Shown: positions 22,021 through 63,569, counted from the first letter of the stretch. The stretch: DNA of 64,000 nt from Candidatus Micrarchaeota archaeon (GCA_027328425.1 DAHVUT010000017.1:1777-65776), one strand, 5' to 3'. Notes: generated from the sequence alone by a model not told the origin. Numbers and translations: made by a program.

Positions 22021-22539
22021 TCATAGTTTGGGCAGCACCATCTTCCTCTTCGTCGGATATGGCGCGTCAACACGCTTGCTCTCTATGTTCTTGGTCTTCC
22101 AGAACACCTCCGCTATCTGCATAACGCCCTCGAGCAACGCGTCGCCGGTCTTCACATCAGTAGTCTGCCTCGCCTTCGACGCCTCCTTCATGGCCGTGAA
22201 CACGAGCTCGTGCAGATTCGAGTTGGCCTGCACATGCTCGGGCTTGAAGTAGTCGCCCCACAGTATCCTGAGCTCGTTCTTGCACATCTCCGCGTACTTC
22301 TCCTTGATCTCAGTGGCCCTTACCAGGCTGTGCATGTCCTCCACAGTAGACTTGCCGCCCGCATGCTCGTTGATCTCAGCGATGAGCTCTTGCATCCTTA
22401 TCACAGTGTGCGCTGCAAGCTGTGCGTCGAAAGGATCGTAGATTCCGCACGGATAGTCGCAGTGTGCGTAGACAGGTTCAATGTGCAGCACGCTGTCCAT
22501 TTTCCCAATAATGCCCCTAGCTATCTTCATGGATTCCAA
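22021..22539 (-). CDS. sodN: Nickel superoxide dismutase precursor
   Basis: A pro-peptide is followed by the Ni-hook HCDYPCGIYDP. Confidence 0.8.
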   Translation of the reverse strand: MESMKIARGIIGKMDSVLHIEPVYAHCDYPCGIYDPFDAQLAAHTVIRMQELIAEINEHAGGKSTVEDMHSLVRATEIKEKYAEMCKNELRILWGDYFKPEHVQANSNLHELVFTAMKEASKARQTTDVKTGDALLEGVMQIAEVFWKTKNIESKRVDAPYPTKRKMVLPKL

Positions 22540-24430: not shown

Positions 24431-25318
24431 CTATTTCAGGTATCTTTGGTGCTCTTTTATATATCTCCTAAAGAACCATAGTACAAATATCGAATCGATT
24501 TTCTTGACTTGCGCCCTTTCTAAGGCATTATAGTAGCCTATCCGATTTTTGTAGGATACATTGAGCATCGGATAACCTAATCTATTTAAGATAAAGTTCA
24601 TAACAAGACGGGATAGTCTTCCATTTCCGTCTATAAAAGGATGTACTGTAACGAATTTTAAATGCGCCAGCGCAGCTAGTTCAACGGGGTGTATTTTCGT
24701 TTTGTTTTTATTGTACCAACTAAAGAAATCATCAAGCAATGGCATGACTTCTATTGGGCTCGGAGGTACGAATTTGCTGCCATATATCCAAACCTGCCTC
24801 GTTCGTATTTTTCCAGCTATATCTTTTTGTGTATTTTCAAAAAGAGAATGATGCCATTCCAAGATGAGTTGTAGTGTCAAATCCCTTTTATATTTCAGCA
24901 TGTTGTAAAAAACGTTTGAATGGGCTTCTGCCTCTTTAACATCTCTGGTAGGTTTATTTGAAGGCGTTACTCCGTGCTGTAGCAAATTAGCTGTTTCCTT
25001 CAAAGTTAGTGTTGAGCCCTCTATTTTTTGAGTGTCATAAGTAAACTTAATCATAAATCCTTCAATTTCTCTGTTTTTTTCGGAGACAGTTGCAGAATCA
25101 ATATCCTTTTTATAAGCTGCCTTTATTTTATCTAATGACAGATACCACTTTTGGGTATAAATCTGTGTAAGAAAATCGCTCTTTATTTTGTCTAAATTTT
25201 TAGGTATGCTGCTTCCCAAGTATTTCTCCTTCTTAATAACAATTCCATTAAGTCTAAATGAATGTTCAAGATAATAGTACTTTTTACTCCCGTATTTTCT
25301 TTCCCTTATATTTACCAT
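24431..25318 (-). CDS. fic: Fic/DOC-family protein (class II, intramolecular inhibitory helix)
   Basis: Fic motif HPFIDGNGRLSR. The N-terminal TQKIEG fits the inhibitory (S/T)xxxE(G/N) motif. Confidence 0.85.
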   Translation of the reverse strand: MVNIRERKYGSKKYYYLEHSFRLNGIVIKKEKYLGSSIPKNLDKIKSDFLTQIYTQKWYLSLDKIKAAYKKDIDSATVSEKNREIEGFMIKFTYDTQKIEGSTLTLKETANLLQHGVTPSNKPTRDVKEAEAHSNVFYNMLKYKRDLTLQLILEWHHSLFENTQKDIAGKIRTRQVWIYGSKFVPPSPIEVMPLLDDFFSWYNKNKTKIHPVELAALAHLKFVTVHPFIDGNGRLSRLVMNFILNRLGYPMLNVSYKNRIGYYNALERAQVKKIDSIFVLWFFRRYIKEHQRYLK

Positions 25319-25329
25319 AATAATACTTA

Positions 25330-25375
25330 CCCCTACATATTTATAAATATTAGTATTTCTATCAAAATGTAGGGG
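25330..25375. promoter_or_regulatory. 9-bp inverted repeat (cccctacat / atgtagggg) bracketing a TATA-like ATTTATAAAT, immediately upstream of fic
   Basis: The arms are at 25330-25338 and 25367-25375. The fic ATG is at 25318. Confidence 0.35.
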
Positions 25376-25428
25376 CAGACATTAGGCTGGCTATTGGATT
25401 CGTACCCTGCTTCCTCGTAAAGCAAAAA

Positions 25429-25480
25429 TGGACTCAGCGGGATTCGCACTCGCAGCCTTCCGCTTGCAAAGTGGAACGGT
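25429..25480 (-). other. tRNA-Ala(UGC)-like 3' fragment (anticodon arm to 3' end), no 5' half
   Basis: About 80% identical to positions ~26-73 of the tRNA-Ala at 28469-28540, including the unusual TGCGAAT T-loop. It has stem mismatches (A.C in the anticodon stem and the T-stem). No matching 5' acceptor strand lies within 200 nt. Confidence 0.6.
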
Positions 25481-25584
25481 CGTAGCTTTATCGTCTAGCT
25501 TTTGTTTCATGTAGTCACCGTATGTTTTATTTTCGCAGATGCGAACATCTGTGTTTCTGCACACAGATTATGCCACGTTCAGAA

Positions 25585-25630
25585 ATATAAAGGAATACGG
25601 CGCAGTTCTTAGCTGTAATCGCACCCAGAC
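25585..25630. repeat. ~46-nt imperfect direct repeat (~76% identity) with 27549-27593, bracketing the ATPase plus small-ORF cassette
   Basis: atataaaggaatacggcgcagttcttagctgtaatcgcacccagac versus ctataaaacaatatggcacaattctagccgtaactgcacccaaac. Confidence 0.55.
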
Positions 25631-25640
25631 TATGAAAGTG

Positions 25641-26927
25641 CTATTCTACCGGGCTCTTCACATTAAGTAGCCACCTCCAGAGCGGCACAAATATCAGTTT
25701 TTTGCCTTCCAATACCGCACTGCCTTCATAGTCCCATGTAAGCACAAGAAGATTGTCGCATCTCAGCTCTCTTGAAGCCAGAATTAACGAATTAATTTCT
25801 CTGCTGTCTATGGCTTCGCGGCTTGAAGCGTATGTAACCTGCACAAGTTGGCTAACAGTCCTGCCCATTTTGACAACAAAGTCCACCTCCCTGCCTTGAT
25901 GATCTTTCCAATAAAATACTTCATATTTGCCTCCATTTTTGCTCTCCTTTATGAGCTCTATGGCGGCTATGTTTTCCATTAGCCTGCCTTTGTTATCTGT
26001 CGGCTCAGGGCTTACTTCTTCTATTATACCGCTATCAACGCAGTATATTTTTTTGGGTGCCAGAATAGTCTGTTTCAACTTGTATGAGAACCGTTCAACT
26101 TTGAATATGAGATACGCCTCCTCAAGATATCTTATCCAGTTGGATAGGGTTATGAGGTTCTTTACCTTAGTTATGCTTCTCAGCGATGAATACGTGAATT
26201 CCTTTGAGCTGTTTGATACCAGAAAACGTGCAACCTGCCTTAAGTCATCAATGTGCTTTATTTTGTGCCTTATGACAACGTCCTTTGTTATTATGTCGTT
26301 GTAGATGTTCCTTATTATCTGCCTGCCCTGCGTAAACTGCTCTGCAAAGCCTCCAGAGAGCACATATTCGTTCATCAGCTTGATAACTTCGGCTCTATCC
26401 ACAGTTGAAAAAGCCCTTGGGGGATTCCACTGTTTGTACACTAGAAATTCATGAAAGCTGAATGGAAAAAGCAATAGGTCCACGTGCCTGCCAGTCAGCC
26501 GGGTTGAAAGCTCACCGCTCAATAGCTTAGAATTTGAACCCGTTACAATGACCTTTTTTGTATCTCTAAGCCTGCTAACAAACGGCTCCCAGCCTGGCAC
26601 TAACTGTATCTCATCAAGTATTATGTTTTCAAGATCCGAGCCGTATAATTCATAGAATATCTGAAGTATTACGTTAAGGTCATTTTTATCCACGCCGAGG
26701 AGCCTCTCATCATCAAAATTTATGTATCCAAACTTGCGCTCAAAAAACAATTGTTCTGAGAGTGTGGATTTGCCAGAGCGTCTAACTCCCAGTATTACAA
26801 AAGCCGTGGGATTTTTCAATGTGACGTACTCAATAGCGTCTCGTGTGATTATACTCTTGGCTTTGAACCGCTCCCCAACGCTTTTTCTCTGGTCGACTAT
26901 TGCTAGTCTAAGAACCTCTTTATCCAT
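25641..26927 (-). CDS. AAA-type ATPase of the archaeal COG1373 (AAA_14 + DUF4143) family
   Basis: Walker A GVRRSGKST, Walker B-like IILDEIQ, and a C-terminal restriction-endonuclease-like region typical of the family. Confidence 0.75.
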   Translation of the reverse strand: MDKEVLRLAIVDQRKSVGERFKAKSIITRDAIEYVTLKNPTAFVILGVRRSGKSTLSEQLFFERKFGYINFDDERLLGVDKNDLNVILQIFYELYGSDLENIILDEIQLVPGWEPFVSRLRDTKKVIVTGSNSKLLSGELSTRLTGRHVDLLLFPFSFHEFLVYKQWNPPRAFSTVDRAEVIKLMNEYVLSGGFAEQFTQGRQIIRNIYNDIITKDVVIRHKIKHIDDLRQVARFLVSNSSKEFTYSSLRSITKVKNLITLSNWIRYLEEAYLIFKVERFSYKLKQTILAPKKIYCVDSGIIEEVSPEPTDNKGRLMENIAAIELIKESKNGGKYEVFYWKDHQGREVDFVVKMGRTVSQLVQVTYASSREAIDSREINSLILASRELRCDNLLVLTWDYEGSAVLEGKKLIFVPLWRWLLNVKSPVE

Positions 26928-27080
26928 AATATAGTATACTATATGATATTATTTAAATCTTTACTAGTATACTATATGATTTTAAACAGCCTAACAGATA
27001 TACAGTGAATTGTTTACTGACACTTTCGCATCGCTCTCAAAGTTTGCAAGAAACGGTCCGTTTTTTGAGTGCACCTGTTC

Positions 27081-27437
27081 TCATCGCGCCTTTCTCGGAA
27101 TGCTTTTGGTGTATTCTGCCATGGCCGCTTCTAGGCACTTTTTTATCTCGCTGCGTTCTCCATCTTCATAGAATCCAATATCAAATCCTATGTCTACGAG
27201 CGAGCCTTTTATCTTTTCCATAGACTCCACAGCGATATATACTAGCTTATGGATTTCGCGTCCATCTCTATACACTACATTAAAGACATTGTTGTCTTCC
27301 TCATCTTTTGCTACTTCGGCATTAGAGAAAATTCCGCTGTCCATAATCTTTTTGCAGGTGAGCGACGCTATTCCCTTTGCTTGCTCTAGCCCCAGCCTCA
27401 AAGCCGCCTCGAAAGTATCGGTCTTTACCATTTTCAC
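27081..27437 (-). CDS. Hypothetical protein (118 aa)
   Basis: AT-rich ATG ORF downstream-adjacent to the ATPase cassette. I recognise no family. Confidence 0.45.
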   Translation of the reverse strand: MKMVKTDTFEAALRLGLEQAKGIASLTCKKIMDSGIFSNAEVAKDEEDNNVFNVVYRDGREIHKLVYIAVESMEKIKGSLVDIGFDIGFYEDGERSEIKKCLEAAMAEYTKSIPRKAR

Positions 27438-27659
27438 ACCTTTGACAGCGTATATTCGTCTTTATTTTGCAATTACTTCATCATACATTAAATTCGCATT
27501 TATACCTCTTATCTAGCTTTCGCATGCGGATAATGGCGTCCTTAGACCTATAAAACAATATGGCACAATTCTAGCCGTAACTGCACCCAAACCCGCTTGC
27601 GGTTCTGTCGCTTGAGTTGACAAGAGCTTTCTGATTAAACTCTTTCCCAAAGAGTTTAT

Positions 27660-27671
27660 TGGACTCGGCGG
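27660..27671. repeat. 12-nt exact copy of the tRNA-Ala 3' end (tggactcggcgg), part of an acceptor-like mini-hairpin
   Basis: Identical to 28469-28480. It is followed by tgagtcc (27683-27689), which can pair with ggactc. Confidence 0.5.
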
Positions 27672-27756
27672 ACTTCAGTAAATGAGTCCGATGCACAAAC
27701 AATGTTATTCAACATCACATGCAGGTAACTAATTGCACCGAAGACAAACATAACAA

Positions 27757-28383
27757 TTATAGTTTCTCTATGCAGACTTCTAGCGCAACTCTAACTGCTC
27801 TAAGTTCTTCTTTTTCAGCTAGGCTTGGAATGTTAGCCTTTATTCCGTAGTGAACTCCTTTTTTCTCAATCACTTGTTTGTGTGTAAGCGGCAGGTGCAT
27901 GAACCCTGCGTACTTTATCTTCATTTCATGCGCAGTTTTCATTATCGTATAAAACAGTTCATTTGAAACAAATGTATCTGGCCAGAAAGAATATTCTGAG
28001 GGTATGCCTGCTTCTTCTATTCTAGATTTTATTGAATCTACTGGCAATGTCGAGAAGTAGGCGGCCTCACCGTTTTTACTAAGGGGTTTGTCTATTATTT
28101 TATCTTCAGAAGCAAAATAAAAACGATTCAAGGCAACCCGTTCTATAGATACAGAACCCCTTGTCGCTGATAAACCCACTCCCAATATCAGCGAGGGGTG
28201 TGTTTCAGCAATATACTTTTCAGCTAATGTTGAAGCAGTTATATGCTCAACAGGAAGCACCATACCAATAATCTTGAATCCCTTAATTATCTTTCCGTTG
28301 AGTTTTTTTGCAATGTTACCACTAGGGTTGCAAGTGTAACTTAGAAATGGGCCAAATCCAAGCAATAATACATTCTTTGGCAT
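27757..28383 (-). CDS. pcp: Pyrrolidone-carboxylate peptidase (C15) homologue with Ser at the nucleophile position
   Basis: SIERVALN (Glu) and AGFMHLP (His) are conserved. The AGTFVCN-equivalent reads PDTFVSN. Confidence 0.75.
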   Translation of the reverse strand: MPKNVLLLGFGPFLSYTCNPSGNIAKKLNGKIIKGFKIIGMVLPVEHITASTLAEKYIAETHPSLILGVGLSATRGSVSIERVALNRFYFASEDKIIDKPLSKNGEAAYFSTLPVDSIKSRIEEAGIPSEYSFWPDTFVSNELFYTIMKTAHEMKIKYAGFMHLPLTHKQVIEKKGVHYGIKANIPSLAEKEELRAVRVALEVCIEKL

Positions 28384-28468
28384 ATTTCCACATAATAAGT
28401 TTCATGCGATAATATTTATAGGTTTTTAATAGAACGTAAGATTCGTACTCAAAGTATGATGTACTTTG

Positions 28469-28540
28469 TGGACTCGGCGGGATTCGCACCCGCGACCTTT
28501 CCGTTGCGAACGGAATGCGCTACTGCTGCGCTACGAGCCC
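28469..28540 (-). tRNA. tRNA-Ala (anticodon CGC) with G3:U70; atypical D- and T-loops
   Basis: GGGCTCG TA GCGC AGCAGTA GCGC A TTCCG TTCGCAA CGGAA AGGTC GCGGG TGCGAAT CCCGC CGAGTCC A. All stems are perfect. The D-loop lacks GG, and the T-loop has G at position 55. Confidence 0.75.
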
Positions 28541-33881: not shown

Positions 33882-33980
33882 TGCAGGGGGAGAGATTTGC
33901 TCATCGCTTTTGAACTCCCGCAGGCCTATGGCCAACAGATCTTGAGTCTGCCGCGTTTGACCAGGCTCCGCCACCCCTGC
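33882..33980 (-). tRNA. tRNA-Leu (anticodon CAA), class II, with a 13-nt insertion (putative non-canonical intron) in the T-loop
   Basis: GCAGGGG TG GCG GAGCCTGGTCAAA CGC G GCAGA CTCAAGA TCTGT, variable arm T GGCC ATA GGCC TGC, then GGGAG TTCAAA[AGCGATGAGCAAA]T CTCTC CCCCTGC A. Confidence 0.7.
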
Positions 33981-34089
33981 ACTGCCTCTATTAATCAGGG
34001 ATAATTTAAATTACTTACAAGCAGTATTTGTTTTAGCTCCTATTTAAACATTGACGTTAAAAAGAGCAGTGACAGGAAGGCGCCTGTGC

Positions 34090-35529
34090 ATGAAATTCAC
34101 TAAGATTAGCGACGTTAAGTTCAAGCTCGAGAAGGATGAAAGCAGGGGCATGAACACGAACGTAGTCATGTATCTGACCGAGCCGATGCTTGAAAAGGTG
34201 AAGAACGACGGCACAGTGCAGCAGGCGGTGAACGTGTCTACGCTTCCGGGCATAGTCGGCGACGTGCTAGCGATGCCTGACGCACACGCAGGCTACGGCA
34301 TGCCCATCGGGGGCGTGGTGGCCTTCGATGCCGAGCACGGCATAGTGTCTCCCGGCGCGGTTGGATTTGACATAGGATGCGGCGTGAGGCTGATAAAGAC
34401 AGGGCTGAGCGAGAAAGAGGTCAGGCCGCACCTCAGCAAGCTCCTGGACACGCTCTTCAAGAACGTGCCCAGCGGAGTAGGCAGCAGGTTCAAGGCAGGC
34501 TTCACGCAGAGCGACCTGGAGAAAGTCGCGGAAGGCGGCGCAGGCTATGTAATAGAGAAGGGATTCGGGTGGACTGACGATGTTGAAAGAATGGAGGAGA
34601 ACGGGAGGATGCCCGATGCCAACTTCTCAGCAGTGAGCAACGATGCTAGGAAGAGGGGCCTGGACGAGCTCGGAACCCTGGGGGCCGGCAACCATTTCCT
34701 CGAGGTGCAGAAGGTGGAGCGTGTGTTTGACGAGAAAACGGCCACTGCTTACGGCCTGGAGCAGGGACAAGTGTTGGTGATGGTGCACACAGGCTCGAGA
34801 GGCTTCGGGCACCAGATTTGCAGCGATTACCTGCGCACGCTCAACGAGTACCAGGAAAAGAACAAGATACAGCTCATCGACAAGGAGCTGAGCTATGCGC
34901 ACGTGGGCAGCAAGGAGGCAAGCTCCTACCTTGCGGCCATGGGCTCTGCGATAAACTATTCGCTCGCGAACAGGCAAATAGTAATGCACAACGTAAGGAA
35001 AAGCTTCGAGGAGGTGTTCGGCAGGAGCGCGGATGCGCTCGGCATGGAGCTGCTCTACGACGTAGCGCACAACGCAGCAAAGAAGGAAGAACATACGGTA
35101 GATGGGAAAAGAATGCATGTGTATGTCCACAGGAAGGGGGCCACGAGAGCGTTCCCGAAGGGCATGGAGGAGGTGCCGAAAGAGTACAGGAACGTTGGAC
35201 AGCCTGTGCTGATCCCGGGCAGCATGGGAACTGCGAGCTACGTGCTCTGCGGCCAGGAGGGTTCTATGAAGGAGACGTTCGGCACCACCTGCCACGGAGC
35301 TGGCAGGGTCATGTCCAGGCACGAGGCAATACACAGCATACCTGAAAGCAAAACCTTTAGCTCGCTCAGCAACAAGGGGATAGAGATAAGGGTGAGGAGC
35401 AGGAAGCTGGTTAGCGAAGAAGCGGAGTGGGCCTACAAAAATGTTGATGATGTTGTGAGTGTGGTGGAGAAGGCTGGCATATCGAACATAGTAGCAAGGA
35501 ACGTGCCCATGGGCGTAGTTAAGGGATGA
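34090..35529 (+). CDS. rtcB: RNA 3'-phosphate ligase RtcB
   Basis: DAHAGYG, HTGSRGFGHQ and CHGAGR motifs. Confidence 0.9.
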   Translation: MKFTKISDVKFKLEKDESRGMNTNVVMYLTEPMLEKVKNDGTVQQAVNVSTLPGIVGDVLAMPDAHAGYGMPIGGVVAFDAEHGIVSPGAVGFDIGCGVRLIKTGLSEKEVRPHLSKLLDTLFKNVPSGVGSRFKAGFTQSDLEKVAEGGAGYVIEKGFGWTDDVERMEENGRMPDANFSAVSNDARKRGLDELGTLGAGNHFLEVQKVERVFDEKTATAYGLEQGQVLVMVHTGSRGFGHQICSDYLRTLNEYQEKNKIQLIDKELSYAHVGSKEASSYLAAMGSAINYSLANRQIVMHNVRKSFEEVFGRSADALGMELLYDVAHNAAKKEEHTVDGKRMHVYVHRKGATRAFPKGMEEVPKEYRNVGQPVLIPGSMGTASYVLCGQEGSMKETFGTTCHGAGRVMSRHEAIHSIPESKTFSSLSNKGIEIRVRSRKLVSEEAEWAYKNVDDVVSVVEKAGISNIVARNVPMGVVKG

Positions 35530-37791: not shown

Positions 37792-40077
37792 ATGCTGGAA
37801 ACCACAACGATAGAGCAGGTAGTTGCTGACGTGTTCGAGATGAGCAGGGAATCTGGAAGCAAGGAAGATCTGCTCGCGAAGTTCGCCACAAGGATAGGGG
37901 GCGCCATGGGCATAGAATACGTGCTCGCGAAGGACACCTACTCAGACAGGGGCAGACTCGACGGCCTCGACGAGTTCGTGATGAACACAGGCAAACCGTA
38001 TGTGGACAACAGGCTAAGCGGCTATTCGGCATTCCCGGAACTGATAAAGCACTACAATCTGGGCTTCAGGAGCTGCATGATGCTGCCAGTGAGCGTCGAG
38101 GGCAAGCCCGTCCTCGTAGCCACGTTCCTGTCCAGGCAGGAGGACAGGTTCGACACGGGCACAGTATCTAAGCTCGGCATGGCTGCTGGCGCCCTCGGCT
38201 ACGCCGTGGCGGCCAAGGCCGAACGGGAGAGGAGCGTCAACCTTGCACATTACTTCGACGCTGCATTCAACACGTACATGGCACAGATGCTGATAGACAG
38301 GACCGGCACCATAGTAAAAGCAAATAAGAGCGCCTGCGAGGCGTTCGGCAAGACACAGAAGGAGATGGTGGGCAGGAACATCAACGAGTTCATAGACGCC
38401 GACGCTAACATGCTACTCTCACTCCAGGGCTGGCGCACTGCCGACATAAGGGACAGGCTGCAGCGCGGCAGGGTCTTCAGGGCAAGCTGCGGCAATGTGA
38501 ACGACAGGCTTCTGCACGTCCTGCTCTCAGATTCTACCGAACTGCTGGAGACCAAAGAGAAAGTCAAAGCGGCGGAACAGGGCGCCAACGACGCGTTCGC
38601 ACTCCTTGCGCCAGACACCAGCATAATGTGGGCCAGCGCGAACATAGAGCGCGTGCTCAAGATAGGCAAGAACGCTTTCGTGGGCAGGAAGCTCACGGAT
38701 ATGATCTACGGCGACAGCAGCTTCGATGCGTGGCTCAAGCAGGTCGACGGGGCCGTGACTAGGGCGCTTCACCTCAATCTAGGCAACGGTGTCTATGCTG
38801 ATGCAAAAACAGTAATATCAAAAAACTCGTTCGGGGGCTACTCGTGCATGCTGTCAAGCAGCAATCTCGAGAAGTACGCCACTGCAATGCGCGGCGCGCT
38901 GGAAGGGCTCATAGAGTCGAGCAACGATGCCATAATAAGCACCGATGCATTCGGCTACGTCAAGTCTATGAATAGGAGCGCGGAACGGCTTCTAGGCTAT
39001 TCCAACAGCGAACTGAGCGGCACTGCCGTGTCGTCGCTATACTCGGACAACGAGAGCAGGAGCAAGTTCGATTCATCAGTATCCATCGCGAGGAACAGCG
39101 GAGTGGTGGAGAACGACTTCGTGAACGCAAGGTGCAAAAGTGGCGAGATTGTGCCCTGCGAGCAGTCCCTGAGGAGCATGCGCGATCCTGATTACAACCT
39201 CGTGGGCTACATGATGGTGATCAAGGAGCTGGCCACCAAACAGAAGATGAGCAGGCTCGAGGACTCCAACGAGGACCTCGAGAAGAAGTTCGAGAACGCG
39301 AAATCCGAGAGCGAGCTCAAGACGCAGTTCCTGTACAACATATCGCACGACCTCAAGACTCCACTCACCAGCATATACGGCTACGGCAAGCTGCTAGCGA
39401 GCGGCTCGAAAGACCTGGATCCGCGCTACAAGGAGTACGCTGACATAATAACCAAAGAAGCGGACAGGCTGCTCCAGCTAATACTCCAGATACTCGATGT
39501 GGCCAAGCTCAGCTCTGGCAGGATACAGCTTGACGCGCAGCAGGTCAACTTCAACGACCTGGTAAAGAATCCTGCAATACAGTCGCTGGCAGAGTTCGCA
39601 GGAAAGAAAGGCATTGCCTTCGAGGTGGCGATAGGCTACGACGTGCCTGCAATACAGGCAGACCCGAACAGGCTCATACAGGTGTTGGTCAACCTTATAG
39701 GCAACGCCATAAAGTTCACGGAACAGGGCAGCATACGCCTGGGAGTTGCCAGGGTGAGCAGCAAGAGCAAGTTCGTGCGGGTCGAAGTCAGGGACACAGG
39801 CACAGGCATAAGCAAAGAAGACATGAAGAAGCTGTTCAAGAAGTTCTACCAGGTGCAGAGGAAGGGGCTGACAGTGCAGGAGGGCTCCGGCACCGGCCTT
39901 GGGCTCAGCATAGCCAAGGAGATAGTAAACCTGCACGGGGGCAAAATCGGAGTGGAATCCGAACCGGGCAAAGGCAGCACGTTCTGGTTCAACCTGCCCA
40001 TAGCAGGAGCCGTCAAGAAGAGCAATAGAAAAAAGGCAAAGCAGCAGGAATCGCACAAAGAAACAGACCCACGCTAG
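37792..40077 (+). CDS. Cytoplasmic sensor histidine kinase (GAF, multiple PAS, HisKA, HATPase_c)
   Basis: H-box FLYNISHDLKTPLTSI, N-box LIGNAIKFT, G-boxes DTGTGI and GSGTGLGLSI. No TM segments. Confidence 0.85.
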   Translation: MLETTTIEQVVADVFEMSRESGSKEDLLAKFATRIGGAMGIEYVLAKDTYSDRGRLDGLDEFVMNTGKPYVDNRLSGYSAFPELIKHYNLGFRSCMMLPVSVEGKPVLVATFLSRQEDRFDTGTVSKLGMAAGALGYAVAAKAERERSVNLAHYFDAAFNTYMAQMLIDRTGTIVKANKSACEAFGKTQKEMVGRNINEFIDADANMLLSLQGWRTADIRDRLQRGRVFRASCGNVNDRLLHVLLSDSTELLETKEKVKAAEQGANDAFALLAPDTSIMWASANIERVLKIGKNAFVGRKLTDMIYGDSSFDAWLKQVDGAVTRALHLNLGNGVYADAKTVISKNSFGGYSCMLSSSNLEKYATAMRGALEGLIESSNDAIISTDAFGYVKSMNRSAERLLGYSNSELSGTAVSSLYSDNESRSKFDSSVSIARNSGVVENDFVNARCKSGEIVPCEQSLRSMRDPDYNLVGYMMVIKELATKQKMSRLEDSNEDLEKKFENAKSESELKTQFLYNISHDLKTPLTSIYGYGKLLASGSKDLDPRYKEYADIITKEADRLLQLILQILDVAKLSSGRIQLDAQQVNFNDLVKNPAIQSLAEFAGKKGIAFEVAIGYDVPAIQADPNRLIQVLVNLIGNAIKFTEQGSIRLGVARVSSKSKFVRVEVRDTGTGISKEDMKKLFKKFYQVQRKGLTVQEGSGTGLGLSIAKEIVNLHGGKIGVESEPGKGSTFWFNLPIAGAVKKSNRKKAKQQESHKETDPR

Positions 40078-40089
40078 CCCGACCGGCCT

Positions 40090-41091
40090 TCAGGGAGTTA
40101 CATAGGCTGCGCATGCGTTGAGTATCTTGCTCTGGAAGGCGTATGTGCTGTTCAGCTGCGTGTAGTTGAGCCCGTAGTATACGCCGGTGTATGTCACGCT
40201 TGACAGGAAAGAGGAAGAGCTTGTGTTGACGATAGCGACCAGCGCGGCCCCTGTGGACGAGCTCGATGGGGCAGCAGTCTTGTATACCACCGCTACGTTT
40301 GGCCCTGAGGAGACGCTGGCGTTGACAGTAAGGCTCCTCGGCACCACCTGGCTAAGGTTCGCGAAGTCGACAGGAGCTGGAGGAGCCGAGCCATGATATG
40401 TCCTGTATGTGGAATTGTAGGTGCTCGCATTGCATCCCGGATCCTTTGCGTAGAGCTTCGCATAATTGTTCATCAGCACACCTGTACCTGTGGAGTTTAT
40501 CAGGCCCATAGCCTTCGCCACTTCCGTCTGACTGCTGTTCTGCGGCTTCACTGTCGTAGTTGAAGCCACACTGCTAGTGGATTGCGGCACCACTATCGTA
40601 ACGTTTGCGGACGCAACGCCGCTAAGGCTTGATGGATTGGAAATACTGACGCCAGGGCTCACACCGACCCCGAGAACCTCATGGAGCGGAGTTATCTCGA
40701 CGCTTGCACCTGTGCCGCTGCTAGAAGTGAGCACTATGTTCATGTCAGCGCTCTGCATTCCGAAGGCACTGACGCTCATGCTCTGCGAGGGGGTGAGCGT
40801 GAAGCTCACCATGGAGCTATAAAGGAGAGGAACCGCACCCAGTGAAAAAGAGGCCCCGGAAGCCGACGATGAGGTAAGCGTAAGGGCAACCACGCTGCTA
40901 TTGTAGAGTCTCATGAACACAGTCTGGTTCTGGCCCAGCGACAGGCTCTGCGCGCTTGAGACTGTGATTACGCTGGGGAAAGCGAGCGAGTAGATGGCAT
41001 ACACTACTATCAGAAATACTATGGCAAGCAATATCAGCCTGCCCAGCTTGAACTGACCTCTTGCATGCACCTGGCTTGCCTTAGAACGCAT
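40090..41091 (-). CDS. N-terminally anchored Ser/Thr-rich surface protein
   Basis: One TM (LILLAIVFLIVVYAIYSLAF) followed by ~300 aa of S/T/V/N-rich sequence with many N-x-S/T sequons. Confidence 0.55.
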   Translation of the reverse strand: MRSKASQVHARGQFKLGRLILLAIVFLIVVYAIYSLAFPSVITVSSAQSLSLGQNQTVFMRLYNSSVVALTLTSSSASGASFSLGAVPLLYSSMVSFTLTPSQSMSVSAFGMQSADMNIVLTSSSGTGASVEITPLHEVLGVGVSPGVSISNPSSLSGVASANVTIVVPQSTSSVASTTTVKPQNSSQTEVAKAMGLINSTGTGVLMNNYAKLYAKDPGCNASTYNSTYRTYHGSAPPAPVDFANLSQVVPRSLTVNASVSSGPNVAVVYKTAAPSSSSTGAALVAIVNTSSSSFLSSVTYTGVYYGLNYTQLNSTYAFQSKILNACAAYVTP

Positions 41092-41165
41092 ACGATTGCC
41101 TGCAAAGGTTTCTGCAAGAACCAATATTATTCTTTCGTTGCCCAATAGGCTTGCGACCAGGGGAG

Positions 41166-42365
41166 ATGATGAAAGGCATAGAGGATGTAGAATCCGACAT
41201 TATGTCGATGGTTAACGACAGGCAGGAAGTCACTTACAATGAGCTCAAAGACTACGTTACGGAGCTGGACGCGGACAAGGAAACACTGGACAGGGCGCTG
41301 CTTGAACTGGAGAAGGCAGGCGCTATAGCCTCCAGGAGCAGCGGCGGCATACCTACTTATTACATGCTGCAGGAGCAGCAACCTATAAAACGCGTCTTCG
41401 TTGTCGAGGACGACCCGGCAATAAACAAGCTGATGGCGCTCTCCATAGGCGGCGGCTACCAGACAACACAGATATACGACGGCAAGGAGGCGATAGAGAA
41501 GATAAAATACCAAAAGCCGGATCTAGTCATACTGGACCTCATGCTGCCCGGAGCCGACGGCCTGGAGGTGTGCAAGACCATAAAGACCACGCAGGGACTC
41601 AAGGACATAACTGTGATAATAGTAAGCGCGATGGACGCTACAAGCAACAGGTTCAAGGGCATAAAGTACGGGGCCGATTACTACATAAAGAAACCATTTG
41701 ACCCCGACGAACTCGGAAGCCTAGTGACCATATTCCTTAAGAAGAAAGGCAAGAAGTTCGATCCGCTCATAGACCTGCCGAACGAGGAACGCATATCAGG
41801 CACGATGGAGAAGGCAGTGCGCGGCGCAGACAGCGACTACAGCATAGGGAGGCTACGCGTCGACAACCTGGCCAACTTCGCGGAGCGATTCGGCAACGAC
41901 GCAGGCATAACGATACTGCGCCTCGTATCGCAGCTGCTGCAAGACAAAGTGCGTGACAACGGCGGCGAGACTTTCGTGGGCTTCCTGAACGGTGATGATT
42001 TCGTGATAGCAGGCAACGGTGGCAGTGTGGAGAAGATGGTCGAGAACATAAAGCAGGAGTTCCAGAACGTGCTTCCCTTCGTGTACCAGAGCGAGGGCTA
42101 CAAACCCATAGAGCTCGGCATAGAGGATACGTACACGGCCCAGAACCCCACGCTTTCGCTGACTTACTCTGAAATAAAGCGCGAGACGCTCATAGCCAGA
42201 CGCGCCGAGGTGCTCAAGGAGAAAAGGGCCAGTGGAGACATAGGCTCATACACGTACGATGAGCTGAGGCGCATGCTGGGCAGCGACGAACTCGACATAA
42301 CCATAACTAGAGACAGCAACGGCGTCAAACTCTCTGTGGGCAAGGGAGCCGGAAGGCAGGGTTAG
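41166..42365 (+). CDS. Response regulator: wHTH-like N-domain, REC, and a degenerate GGDEF-like domain
   Basis: REC: VFVVEDDP...DLVILDLMLPGADG...KKPF. C-terminal: DPLIDLPNEE...LRVDNLANFAERFGNDAG...FVGFLNGDDFVIAG parallels DpLTgLpNR...lDiDhFKxiNDxyGHxaGD...RyGGDEFail. Confidence 0.7.
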   Translation: MMKGIEDVESDIMSMVNDRQEVTYNELKDYVTELDADKETLDRALLELEKAGAIASRSSGGIPTYYMLQEQQPIKRVFVVEDDPAINKLMALSIGGGYQTTQIYDGKEAIEKIKYQKPDLVILDLMLPGADGLEVCKTIKTTQGLKDITVIIVSAMDATSNRFKGIKYGADYYIKKPFDPDELGSLVTIFLKKKGKKFDPLIDLPNEERISGTMEKAVRGADSDYSIGRLRVDNLANFAERFGNDAGITILRLVSQLLQDKVRDNGGETFVGFLNGDDFVIAGNGGSVEKMVENIKQEFQNVLPFVYQSEGYKPIELGIEDTYTAQNPTLSLTYSEIKRETLIARRAEVLKEKRASGDIGSYTYDELRRMLGSDELDITITRDSNGVKLSVGKGAGRQG

Positions 42366-63551: not shown

Positions 63552-63569
63552 AGAAGCAGCTTGCAACGT

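Follow-up and report, generated by a model that had tools for sequence, protein, structure and literature searches.

Positions 37792-42365 of a 64,000-nt stretch of Candidatus Micrarchaeota archaeon DNA (GCA_027328425.1 DAHVUT010000017.1:1777-65776; the whole stretch is called the window below) encode a sensor histidine kinase and a response regulator, with a surface-protein gene between them. The regulator has four parts: a winged helix, a receiver (REC) domain, a GGDEF-like domain and a conserved C-terminal tail of about 45 residues. By sequence and profile comparison, the GGDEF-like domain is a real GGDEF domain that is predicted to be catalytically dead. The reading that we favour, at a rough probability of 0.55, is that phosphorylation controls a regulator which acts through its winged helix, while the dead GGDEF domain provides a scaffold or a means of dimerisation.

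Regulators that combine REC with an inactivated GGDEF are already known, and this family has been noted before. Galperin et al. (2018; J Bacteriol 200:e00681-17; PMC5847659) listed in one sentence a ‘WspR-like (REC with inactivated GGDEF)’ regulator from Ca. Micrarchaeum acidiphilum. That protein comes from the same phylum, has the same REC plus inactivated-GGDEF core and apparently belongs to the same orthologous family. A full-text literature search for Micrarchaeota together with ‘response regulator’ returned nothing more specific. What is new relative to Galperin et al. (2018) is the four-part architecture, the residue-level account of inactivation, the ancestry of the domain, its distribution over 193 genomes and the linkage to a kinase and a surface protein. 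An earlier account of this DNA, made from the sequence alone (the sequence-only reading), thus overestimated the novelty of the regulator. The three open reading frames (ORFs) are as that account described them, and the three segments that it had matched to GGDEF blocks (DPLIDLPNEE, LRVDNLANFAERFGNDAG and FVGFLNGDDFVIAG) all occur in the regulator translation.

The genes of the locus and the parts of the regulator are as follows.

37792-40077, plus strand: sensor histidine kinase gene (761 aa counted from an internal ATG)
40090-41091, minus strand: Ser/Thr-rich surface-protein gene (333 aa when ATG 41091 is taken as the start; as called mechanically, the ORF extends to TTG 41145)
41166-42365, plus strand: response regulator gene (399 aa)
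41178-41366, plus strand: winged helix (regulator residues 5-67; from AlphaFold topology and weak winged helix-turn-helix (wHTH) matches)
41388-41741, plus strand: REC domain (residues 75-192; Pfam REC at 77-185, E 1e-25)
41757-42221, plus strand: predicted inactivated GGDEF (palm cyclase) domain (residues 198-352; NGDDF at 275-279)
42222-42362, plus strand: C-terminal tail (residues 353-399; DIGSYTYEELRxMLGS..LDITITRD..GVKLSVGK)

The second methionine is the start in nearly all regulator orthologues, and the regulator therefore probably starts at ATG 41169.

The GGDEF-like domain and its active site

The sequence-only reading had staked its case on a profile match to GGDEF or a related cyclase fold. 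Pfam GGDEF (PF00990) matches residues 198-320 with 26.4 bits (E 6.7e-6), above the gathering cut-off of 23.8. A profile built from 23 C-terminal domains and searched against PDB sequences retrieves GGDEF first (6eib, E 0.0018; DosC, E 0.006), with 4zve also matched. Searched against 1.84 billion representative proteins, the C-terminal-domain profile recovers about 20 family representatives and then 658 proteins at E <=1e-3. GGDEF proteins are matched in this library at E-values down to 5e-11, and the sampled non-family matches are canonical GGDEF proteins by Pfam (E 1e-15 to 1e-19).

Structure prediction points the same way. We built a full-length AlphaFold model from a 45-sequence alignment (predicted local distance difference test score, pLDDT, 80.9) and a model of the GGDEF-like domain (pLDDT 76.5). 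The domain is modelled with the topology beta1-alpha1-alpha2-beta2-beta3-alpha3-beta4-alpha4, and the signature lies on the beta2-beta3 hairpin. In a Foldseek search of the domain model against the PDB, the top 28 matches are all GGDEF domains (DosC, PleD, LapD, WspR and others); the first class III adenylyl cyclase comes at rank 29, and the best Cas10 (6xn7) is at rank 48 (E 9e-3). For the full-length model, the best matches are the REC-GGDEF regulators PleD, WspR and DgcR.

The nearest relatives outside the family identify a likely source for the unusual signature. Among the best 130 non-family matches, 108 carry GHxGGDDF and none carries canonical GG[DE]EF. The consensus of this GHxGGDDF subfamily is NPLT.LPGN ... 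Y.DLDNFKayND.YGf..GD ... FvGHiGGDDFv ... Y..eDr..Gy. HHalign aligns the archaeal family with the subfamily over 119 columns (probability 99.1%, E 7e-19). Both share (D/N)PL-x-x-LP, FVG-x-x-x-x-DDF and, after helix 3, Y-x-x-E/D-x-x-G-Y; the bacterial proteins keep DLDNFK, YND and G..GD, which make up a complete substrate and metal site, whereas the archaeal family has replaced them. These alignments place the domain as a descendant of a bacterial REC-GHxGGDDF regulator, with NGDDF as a decayed GGDDF.

The bacterial GHxGGDDF subfamily (P0053-P0182) is large, and its motif is invariant, with Asp in place of Glu at the fourth signature position. It has an otherwise complete catalytic set and occurs fused to REC, CBS or EAL domains. 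Its members include a REC-GGDDF protein of ~300 aa (P0053), a CBS-GGDDF protein (P0055) and two REC-GGDDF-EAL proteins (P0057 and P0058). The only GGDDF enzyme that we found shown to be active in the literature is GSU1937, in which the G372A (GADDF) mutant is inactive (PMC8835794).

The sequence-only reading had been reminded of the GGDD motif of Cas10. Descent from GHxGGDDF proteins explains the DDF, so NGDDF is no sign of Cas10 affinity. We rejected Cas10/mCpol as a candidate relative: the domain has no Cas10 Pfam match, Cas10 stands at Foldseek rank 48 behind GGDEF and the beta1 Asp is missing.

We mapped catalytic positions by HMMER and HHalign alignments and counted residues in 78 full-length orthologues. 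The PleD positions, the window residues and the counts in orthologues are as follows.

PleD D327, beta1 metal-binding Asp: R231 (R54, K16, M3, A2, G2, Q1; never acidic)
PleD K332, phosphate binding: A236 (A69/78)
PleD N335, guanine binding: A239 (A74/78)
PleD D344, guanine binding: I248 (I59/V9/M9, also L)
His/Arg two residues before the signature: F273 (F78/78)
First Gly of the signature: N275 (N57, D20)

Across the whole signature the counts are N57/D20, G41/S26/A11, D71/E6, D78 and F78. The statement that the guanine-contacting Asn and Asp are not conserved is borne out by Ala239 and Ile248. The sequence-only reading had left two outcomes open, a different nucleotide signal or a non-catalytic effector. 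The second agrees with a lost site; the first, a Cas10-like signal, does not agree with a beta1 position that is Arg or Lys in 70/78 orthologues. Cyclase activity had also been made to depend on retained metal-binding acidic residues, and the beta1 residue is lost (R231). A novel nucleotide signal from the regulator is thus very unlikely.

Related clades extend this picture. In metagenomic sister clades with ~50% identity and the same whole architecture, the signature is NSDQF, NTTEF, NSSSF, DSEVF or KNKQF. D-x-E on beta1 survives in the most divergent clade (P0045, P0047 and P0052), where the signature is GESSF, GDSFF or GENAF. A complete site is found in no clade, as would be expected of a pseudo-enzyme. 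The family has invariant residues of its own at Q256, Q259-D260, E298-F299, Q308 and G311.

An inhibitory-site (I-site) receptor for cyclic di-GMP (c-di-GMP) of the PopA/PelD type was also considered and rejected. The RxxD site, which such receptors have five residues upstream of the signature, is absent: positions -9 to -6 from the signature are G-G-E-T (residues 266-269) and vary among orthologues.

Two shorter relatives, P0109 (L083 848-1801) and P0062 (L084 312-1268, on a 1.5-kb contig), have ~318 aa and a wHTH-REC-degenerate GGDEF architecture without the C-terminal tail. Their signature regions read FLGHLNENTF and FIAHVEENKF. Such proteins may form a sister family from a different lineage.

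The two-component pair and its locus

The REC domain retains the residues of a working receiver. All 58 sequences compared have E81, D82, D124 (the acceptor), S154, Y173 and K176-P177; the phosphorylation-site residues are thus all kept and the domain should be phosphorylatable. Its closest structures are the receivers of VicR, PhoP, MtrA and PhoB, with a Foldseek template-modelling (TM) score of about 0.9 for PhoB, VicR and MtrA. Sequence and model together indicate a receiver of the bacterial OmpR/PhoB type. The C-terminal Trans_reg_C output of the OmpR/PhoB family is absent from the regulator, and the receiver part alone aligns with those models. The regulator's own winged helix is N-terminal and of a type other than Trans_reg_C.

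Residues 5-67 are modelled as H-beta-H-H-beta-beta, with mean pLDDT values of 81-95 over 10-residue blocks. A profile of 37 N-termini gives weak, coherent matches to BlaI/MecI, CodY, SmtB, TFE and archaeal Lrp/ArsR-type regulators. Single N-terminal members match Penicillinase_R (11/37), TrmB (6e-6), MarR and ArsR, mostly below curated cut-offs, and Pfam gives several weak N-terminal winged-helix matches for the window regulator. Most of the matched proteins are DNA-binding repressors, and CHMP7 and MCM4, which do not bind DNA through this fold, are also among them. We take the N-terminus to be a probable winged helix that would bind DNA. In the model, the C-terminal tail forms a helix and then a beta-hairpin (pLDDT 39-78), and a PDB profile search for its identity returned noise matches only.

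The order REC-linker-GGDEF and a phosphorylatable receiver are shared with WspR, PleD and DgcR (PDB 3bre, 2v0n and 6zxb). By analogy, the regulator probably also shares their activation logic, in which phosphorylation drives oligomerisation. Those enzymes have GG[DE]EF, the beta1 Asp, the Asn/Asp contacts and RxxD, and they synthesise c-di-GMP; the micrarchaeal regulator lacks all of these, and adds the N-terminal winged helix and the 45-residue tail. A second likeness is to the LtrR-type regulators (Methanococcoides burtonii; PMC5847659), archaeal proteins with an N-terminal (w)HTH followed by REC and a paired cytoplasmic kinase. LtrR-type proteins lack a GGDEF-derived C-terminal domain and have been reported only in haloarchaea and Methanosarcina (PMC5847659).

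The domains of the kinase, in kinase residues, are as follows.

about 25-140: divergent GAF (weak Pfam match)
about 155-270: PAS (Pfam)
about 270-360: possible weak third PAS
370-478: PAS (Pfam)
519: phospho-acceptor (H-box) His of HisKA (Pfam)
624-737: HATPase_c (Pfam)

The two PAS stretches, HisKA and HATPase_c have strong Pfam E-values. The GAF match in the window protein is weak, at E 0.13 over the full length and 0.021 when the N-terminal fragment is searched alone. GAF is found at the same place in 6/6 kinase orthologues tested (E 8.5e-5 to 0.05), one of which reaches the Pfam GAF cut-off. We saw no transmembrane segment in the kinase, which is cytoplasmic. Pfam domains and synteny both uphold the earlier description of a GAF-PAS-PAS-HisKA-HATPase kinase beside a wHTH-REC-GGDEF-like regulator.

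The phyletic survey that the sequence-only reading had called for found relatives of the regulator in 193 species-representative genomes. Nearly all of the best 80 of the 193 carry a Micrarchaeota, Micrarchaeia or Micrarchaeaceae label; among the others, three bins bear the name Marsarchaeota and the remainder read ‘uncultured archaeon’ or ‘archaeon’. The nearest genome match is a Candidatus Micrarchaeota metagenome-assembled genome (JAJYVH010000001, locus L001; 96-99% identity). The regulator is 60-97% identical to 49 locus-encoded orthologues and collinear with them over its full length.

We compared the window proteins by tblastn with the loci of these best 80 genomes, in which many of the loci missing neighbours are short contigs. 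The gene order RtcB, orf280, fibrillarin (minus), kinase (plus), surface protein (minus), regulator (plus) is kept in 58-65/80 loci. A kinase orthologue lies upstream of the regulator gene in 63/80 Micrarchaeota loci; the surface-protein gene has an orthologue in 65/80 and fibrillarin is present in 58/80. The same order recurs in about 60 independent assemblies, some of them contigs of 0.65-0.85 Mb. By reading of the translations, the neighbours are RtcB and fibrillarin upstream, and an aCPSF1-like beta-CASP nuclease and a proteasome beta subunit downstream. A nucleotide-metabolising partner gene is absent from the conserved neighbourhood in the 80 loci. The divergent relatives P0052 and P0109 likewise adjoin a PAS kinase, and the P0052 clade keeps the kinase-regulator pair without the surface-protein gene.

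The wHTH-REC-inactivated GGDEF gene is a genuine archaeal gene. Galperin et al. (2018) asked whether bacterial-type archaeal regulators are contamination (PMC5847659), and Roemling (2022) held that GGDEF proteins in archaea have still to be confirmed (PMC10086821). As far as the Micrarchaeota genes among these are concerned, the question is answered, since conserved synteny and archaeal neighbours remove the doubt. The first complete Micrarchaeota genome has one kinase and one HTH-containing regulator (PMC5847659). The pair is a two-component system specific to the Micrarchaeota lineage, and apparently the only one that they have.

The surface-protein gene is convergent with the kinase gene (stops 12 nt apart) and divergent from the regulator gene. 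It is wedged between the two in the loci that carry an orthologue, and it is specific to Micrarchaeota. The likely true start, ATG 41091, gives a protein that begins MRSKASQVHARGQFKLGR and continues into a hydrophobic helix. The protein has a short basic N-terminus, one hydrophobic membrane helix and a predicted extracellular body. The body is rich in Ser/Thr and N-x-S/T sequons and has two invariant Cys, and the protein carries a conserved FY-x-S-x-x-PVL motif. Its cytoplasmic tail is short (about 18 residues) and poorly conserved. Searches with the window protein gave no Pfam or NCBIfam match, and 31 orthologues gave none in Pfam or in a PDB profile search.

The intergenic region between the two divergent genes (41092-41165) holds a conserved element.

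41119-41137, plus strand: quasi-palindrome resembling a transcription factor B recognition element (BRE) and TATA box (window AACCAATATTATTCTTTCG; consensus AAAGnAATATTATaCTTTc)

The distance from the end of the element to the regulator start codon is mostly 26-35 nt (mode 27); on the other side, the element ends 31-40 nt before the surface-protein ATG 41091. Its 13-nt core is matched with <=3 mismatches at fixed distance in 55/79 loci, and it is conserved across species whose proteins are only 60-70% identical. With 14/17 palindromic positions, it could drive both of the divergent genes or act as an operator. The 64-kb window contains one copy. When 1.09 Mb of related loci were scanned with a position weight matrix (PWM), only weaker sites of a generic promoter-like kind came up, and none recurred as a second copy at kinase or surface-protein genes. 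Because the element is unique, has fixed spacing and lacks a recurrent second site, we treat it as the regulator's probable BRE/TATA promoter, possibly bidirectional. We do not claim an operator reading of AAAGnAATATTATaCTTTc, given the single window copy, the fixed spacing and the PWM result. Just 5′ of the regulator ATG, after the quasi-palindrome, lies a conserved GGCGATC that is possibly a Shine-Dalgarno variant.

Proposed function and alternatives

In the mechanism that we propose, the cytoplasmic GAF/PAS kinase would sense an intracellular cue and phosphorylate Asp124. The phosphorylated OmpR/PhoB-like receiver would then dimerise, as in WspR, PleD and DgcR. Dimerisation would set two winged helices on DNA instead of joining two cyclase half-sites. 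The dead GGDEF domain and the tail could act as a structural scaffold, a second dimer interface or a surface that binds a partner or ligand. The most plausible targets would be the regulator's own promoter and the divergent surface-glycoprotein gene.

Several observations weigh against this proposal. The winged-helix assignments are individually below family thresholds, and DNA binding is a step that we infer. AlphaFold confidence is moderate (pLDDT 76-81), and TM scores to GGDEF structures are only 0.4-0.55. The motif 5′ of the gene resembles a standard BRE/TATA promoter, and there is no second copy that would point to a regulon. The conserved, family-specific tail is left unexplained. Finally, the DDF of the clade (D71/E6, D78, F78) and an acidic residue at position 233 (E36/D33/N7), two positions after the lost metal Asp on beta1, are under selection. 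The active-site surface thus still does something that a pure scaffold does not explain.

A less probable alternative is that the output is purely a matter of protein-protein contacts, with the winged helix acting without DNA and the GGDEF domain and tail docking on another protein, for example on the cytoplasmic tail of the surface protein or on a component of the basal machinery. Archaeal two-component signalling has been argued to work mainly through protein-protein interaction (Galperin et al., 2018; PMC5847659), the winged-helix matches include CHMP7 and MCM4, and the surface-protein gene is tightly syntenic. However, most winged-helix matches are DNA-binding repressors (BlaI/MecI, CodY, SmtB, TrmB and MarR). 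The cytoplasmic tail available for docking is ~18 poorly conserved residues, and the P0052 clade keeps its pair without any surface-protein gene.

It is also possible, and rather unlikely, that the degenerate domain is a receptor for a nucleotide (GTP, ATP, c-di-AMP or a cyclic oligonucleotide), a host compound or a partner protein, and so gives the regulator a second input beside phosphorylation. Degenerate GGDEF domains form an established class that includes PdeA/CC3396 (GEDEF, a GTP sensor), PopA and PelD (c-di-GMP receptors) and GdpP/YybT. As in the micrarchaeal regulator, these proteins reuse the GGDEF fold without cyclase activity, and PopA is also a response regulator. PopA, PelD, PdeA and GdpP keep an RxxD I-site or a GTP/ATP-binding site, whereas neither is recognisable in the micrarchaeal regulator. 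The receptor role of such domains is partly documented in PMC8835794. The family-specific invariant residues indicate a selected surface, and in the window's clade DDF, the acidic 233 and the basic 231 are conserved. Against a receptor stand the lost RxxD, guanine Asn/Asp, phosphate Lys and GG, an acidic pair that is not kept in sister clades of the same architecture, and the lack of a nucleotide-metabolising gene in the conserved neighbourhood. We retain this alternative because selection on R/K231, D/E233 and DDF is unexplained by a pure scaffold.

A more speculative extension, which we consider improbable, is that the remodelled face (Arg/Lys231, Asp/Glu233 and Asp277-Asp278-Phe279), which the invariant tail follows, binds a small molecule or host signal. 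The single two-component system of these obligate episymbionts would in that case join ligand sensing to phosphorylation and switch on the surface glycoprotein during attachment to the Thermoplasmatales host. If so, it would represent a pseudo-cyclase sensor of a new class, confined to DPANN archaea.

There is very little to suggest that the domain has kept nucleotidyl cyclase activity, with catalysis relying on the DD pair as it does in Cas10 (GGDD) or in GSU1937, and that REC controls the synthesis of c-di-GMP or some other nucleotide signal. The (near-)invariant DD-F and acidic position 233 of the window's clade would fit such an enzyme, as would the proven activity of one GGDDF enzyme (PMC8835794) and the complete catalytic set of the nearest GHxGGDDF relatives. 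The beta1 Asp, however, has become Arg/Lys, and every orthologue has replaced the Lys, Asn and Asp substrate contacts, the His/Arg before the motif and the first Gly. The GADDF mutant of GSU1937 is inactive, sister clades read NSSSF, KNKQF and DSEVF, and Cas10 and adenylyl cyclases fall far below GGDEF in Foldseek. Moreover, the 64-kb window has one GGDEF-like ORF and no EAL, HD-GYP or second GGDEF gene. c-di-GMP was undetected in Haloferax and Sulfolobus, the two archaea tested, and EAL and PilZ domains are almost wholly absent from archaea (PMC8646023).

Bacterial contamination or a mis-binned contig, a doubt raised by Galperin et al. (2018) and Roemling (2022) and suggested by the bacterial type of REC and GGDEF, is refuted by synteny (archaeal housekeeping neighbours, an archaeal 23S rRNA in the window and the same order in about 60 assemblies).

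The favoured reading, a phosphorylation-controlled regulator with a dead GGDEF module, bears on how archaeal GGDEF genes are counted. Braun et al. (2021) reported >300 archaeal GGDEF BLAST matches, many of them in DPANN and Asgard archaea (PMC8646023), and such counts have been taken as a hint of archaeal c-di-GMP signalling. The cyclase domain in Micrarchaeota is predicted to be inactivated, and the Micrarchaeota share of these matches would thus provide no argument for c-di-GMP synthesis. In addition, what is apparently the sole two-component system of these reduced archaea, which depend on a host, is marked here along with its conserved surface-protein gene. It offers a specific target for work on how a DPANN symbiont perceives its own state or its host.

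Other features of the window

An archaeal 23S rRNA gene runs off the window edge, with its 3′ end at 63563-64000 (minus strand). An Rfam tRNA match at 33882-33980 (99 nt, 42 bits) has no ARAGORN call, which suggests an intron-containing archaeal tRNA. The gene for the tRNA-splicing ligase RtcB (34051-35529) follows ~70 nt downstream of this candidate.

The lowest-GC stretch of the window is 24431-28540 (GC 0.41, versus about 0.54). It contains a Fic-motif protein (HPFIDGNGRLSR; ORF 24431-25318) and a 428-aa ORF (25641-26927) that by eye reads as an ATPase, with GVRRSGKST resembling a P-loop. The stretch ends beside tRNA-Ala(CGC) at 28468-28540 and looks like an island integrated at a tRNA gene.

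An ORF at 22021-22539 (minus strand) encodes HCDYPCGIYDP after a short leader. This segment resembles the Ni-hook of nickel superoxide dismutase (HCDLPCGVYDP).

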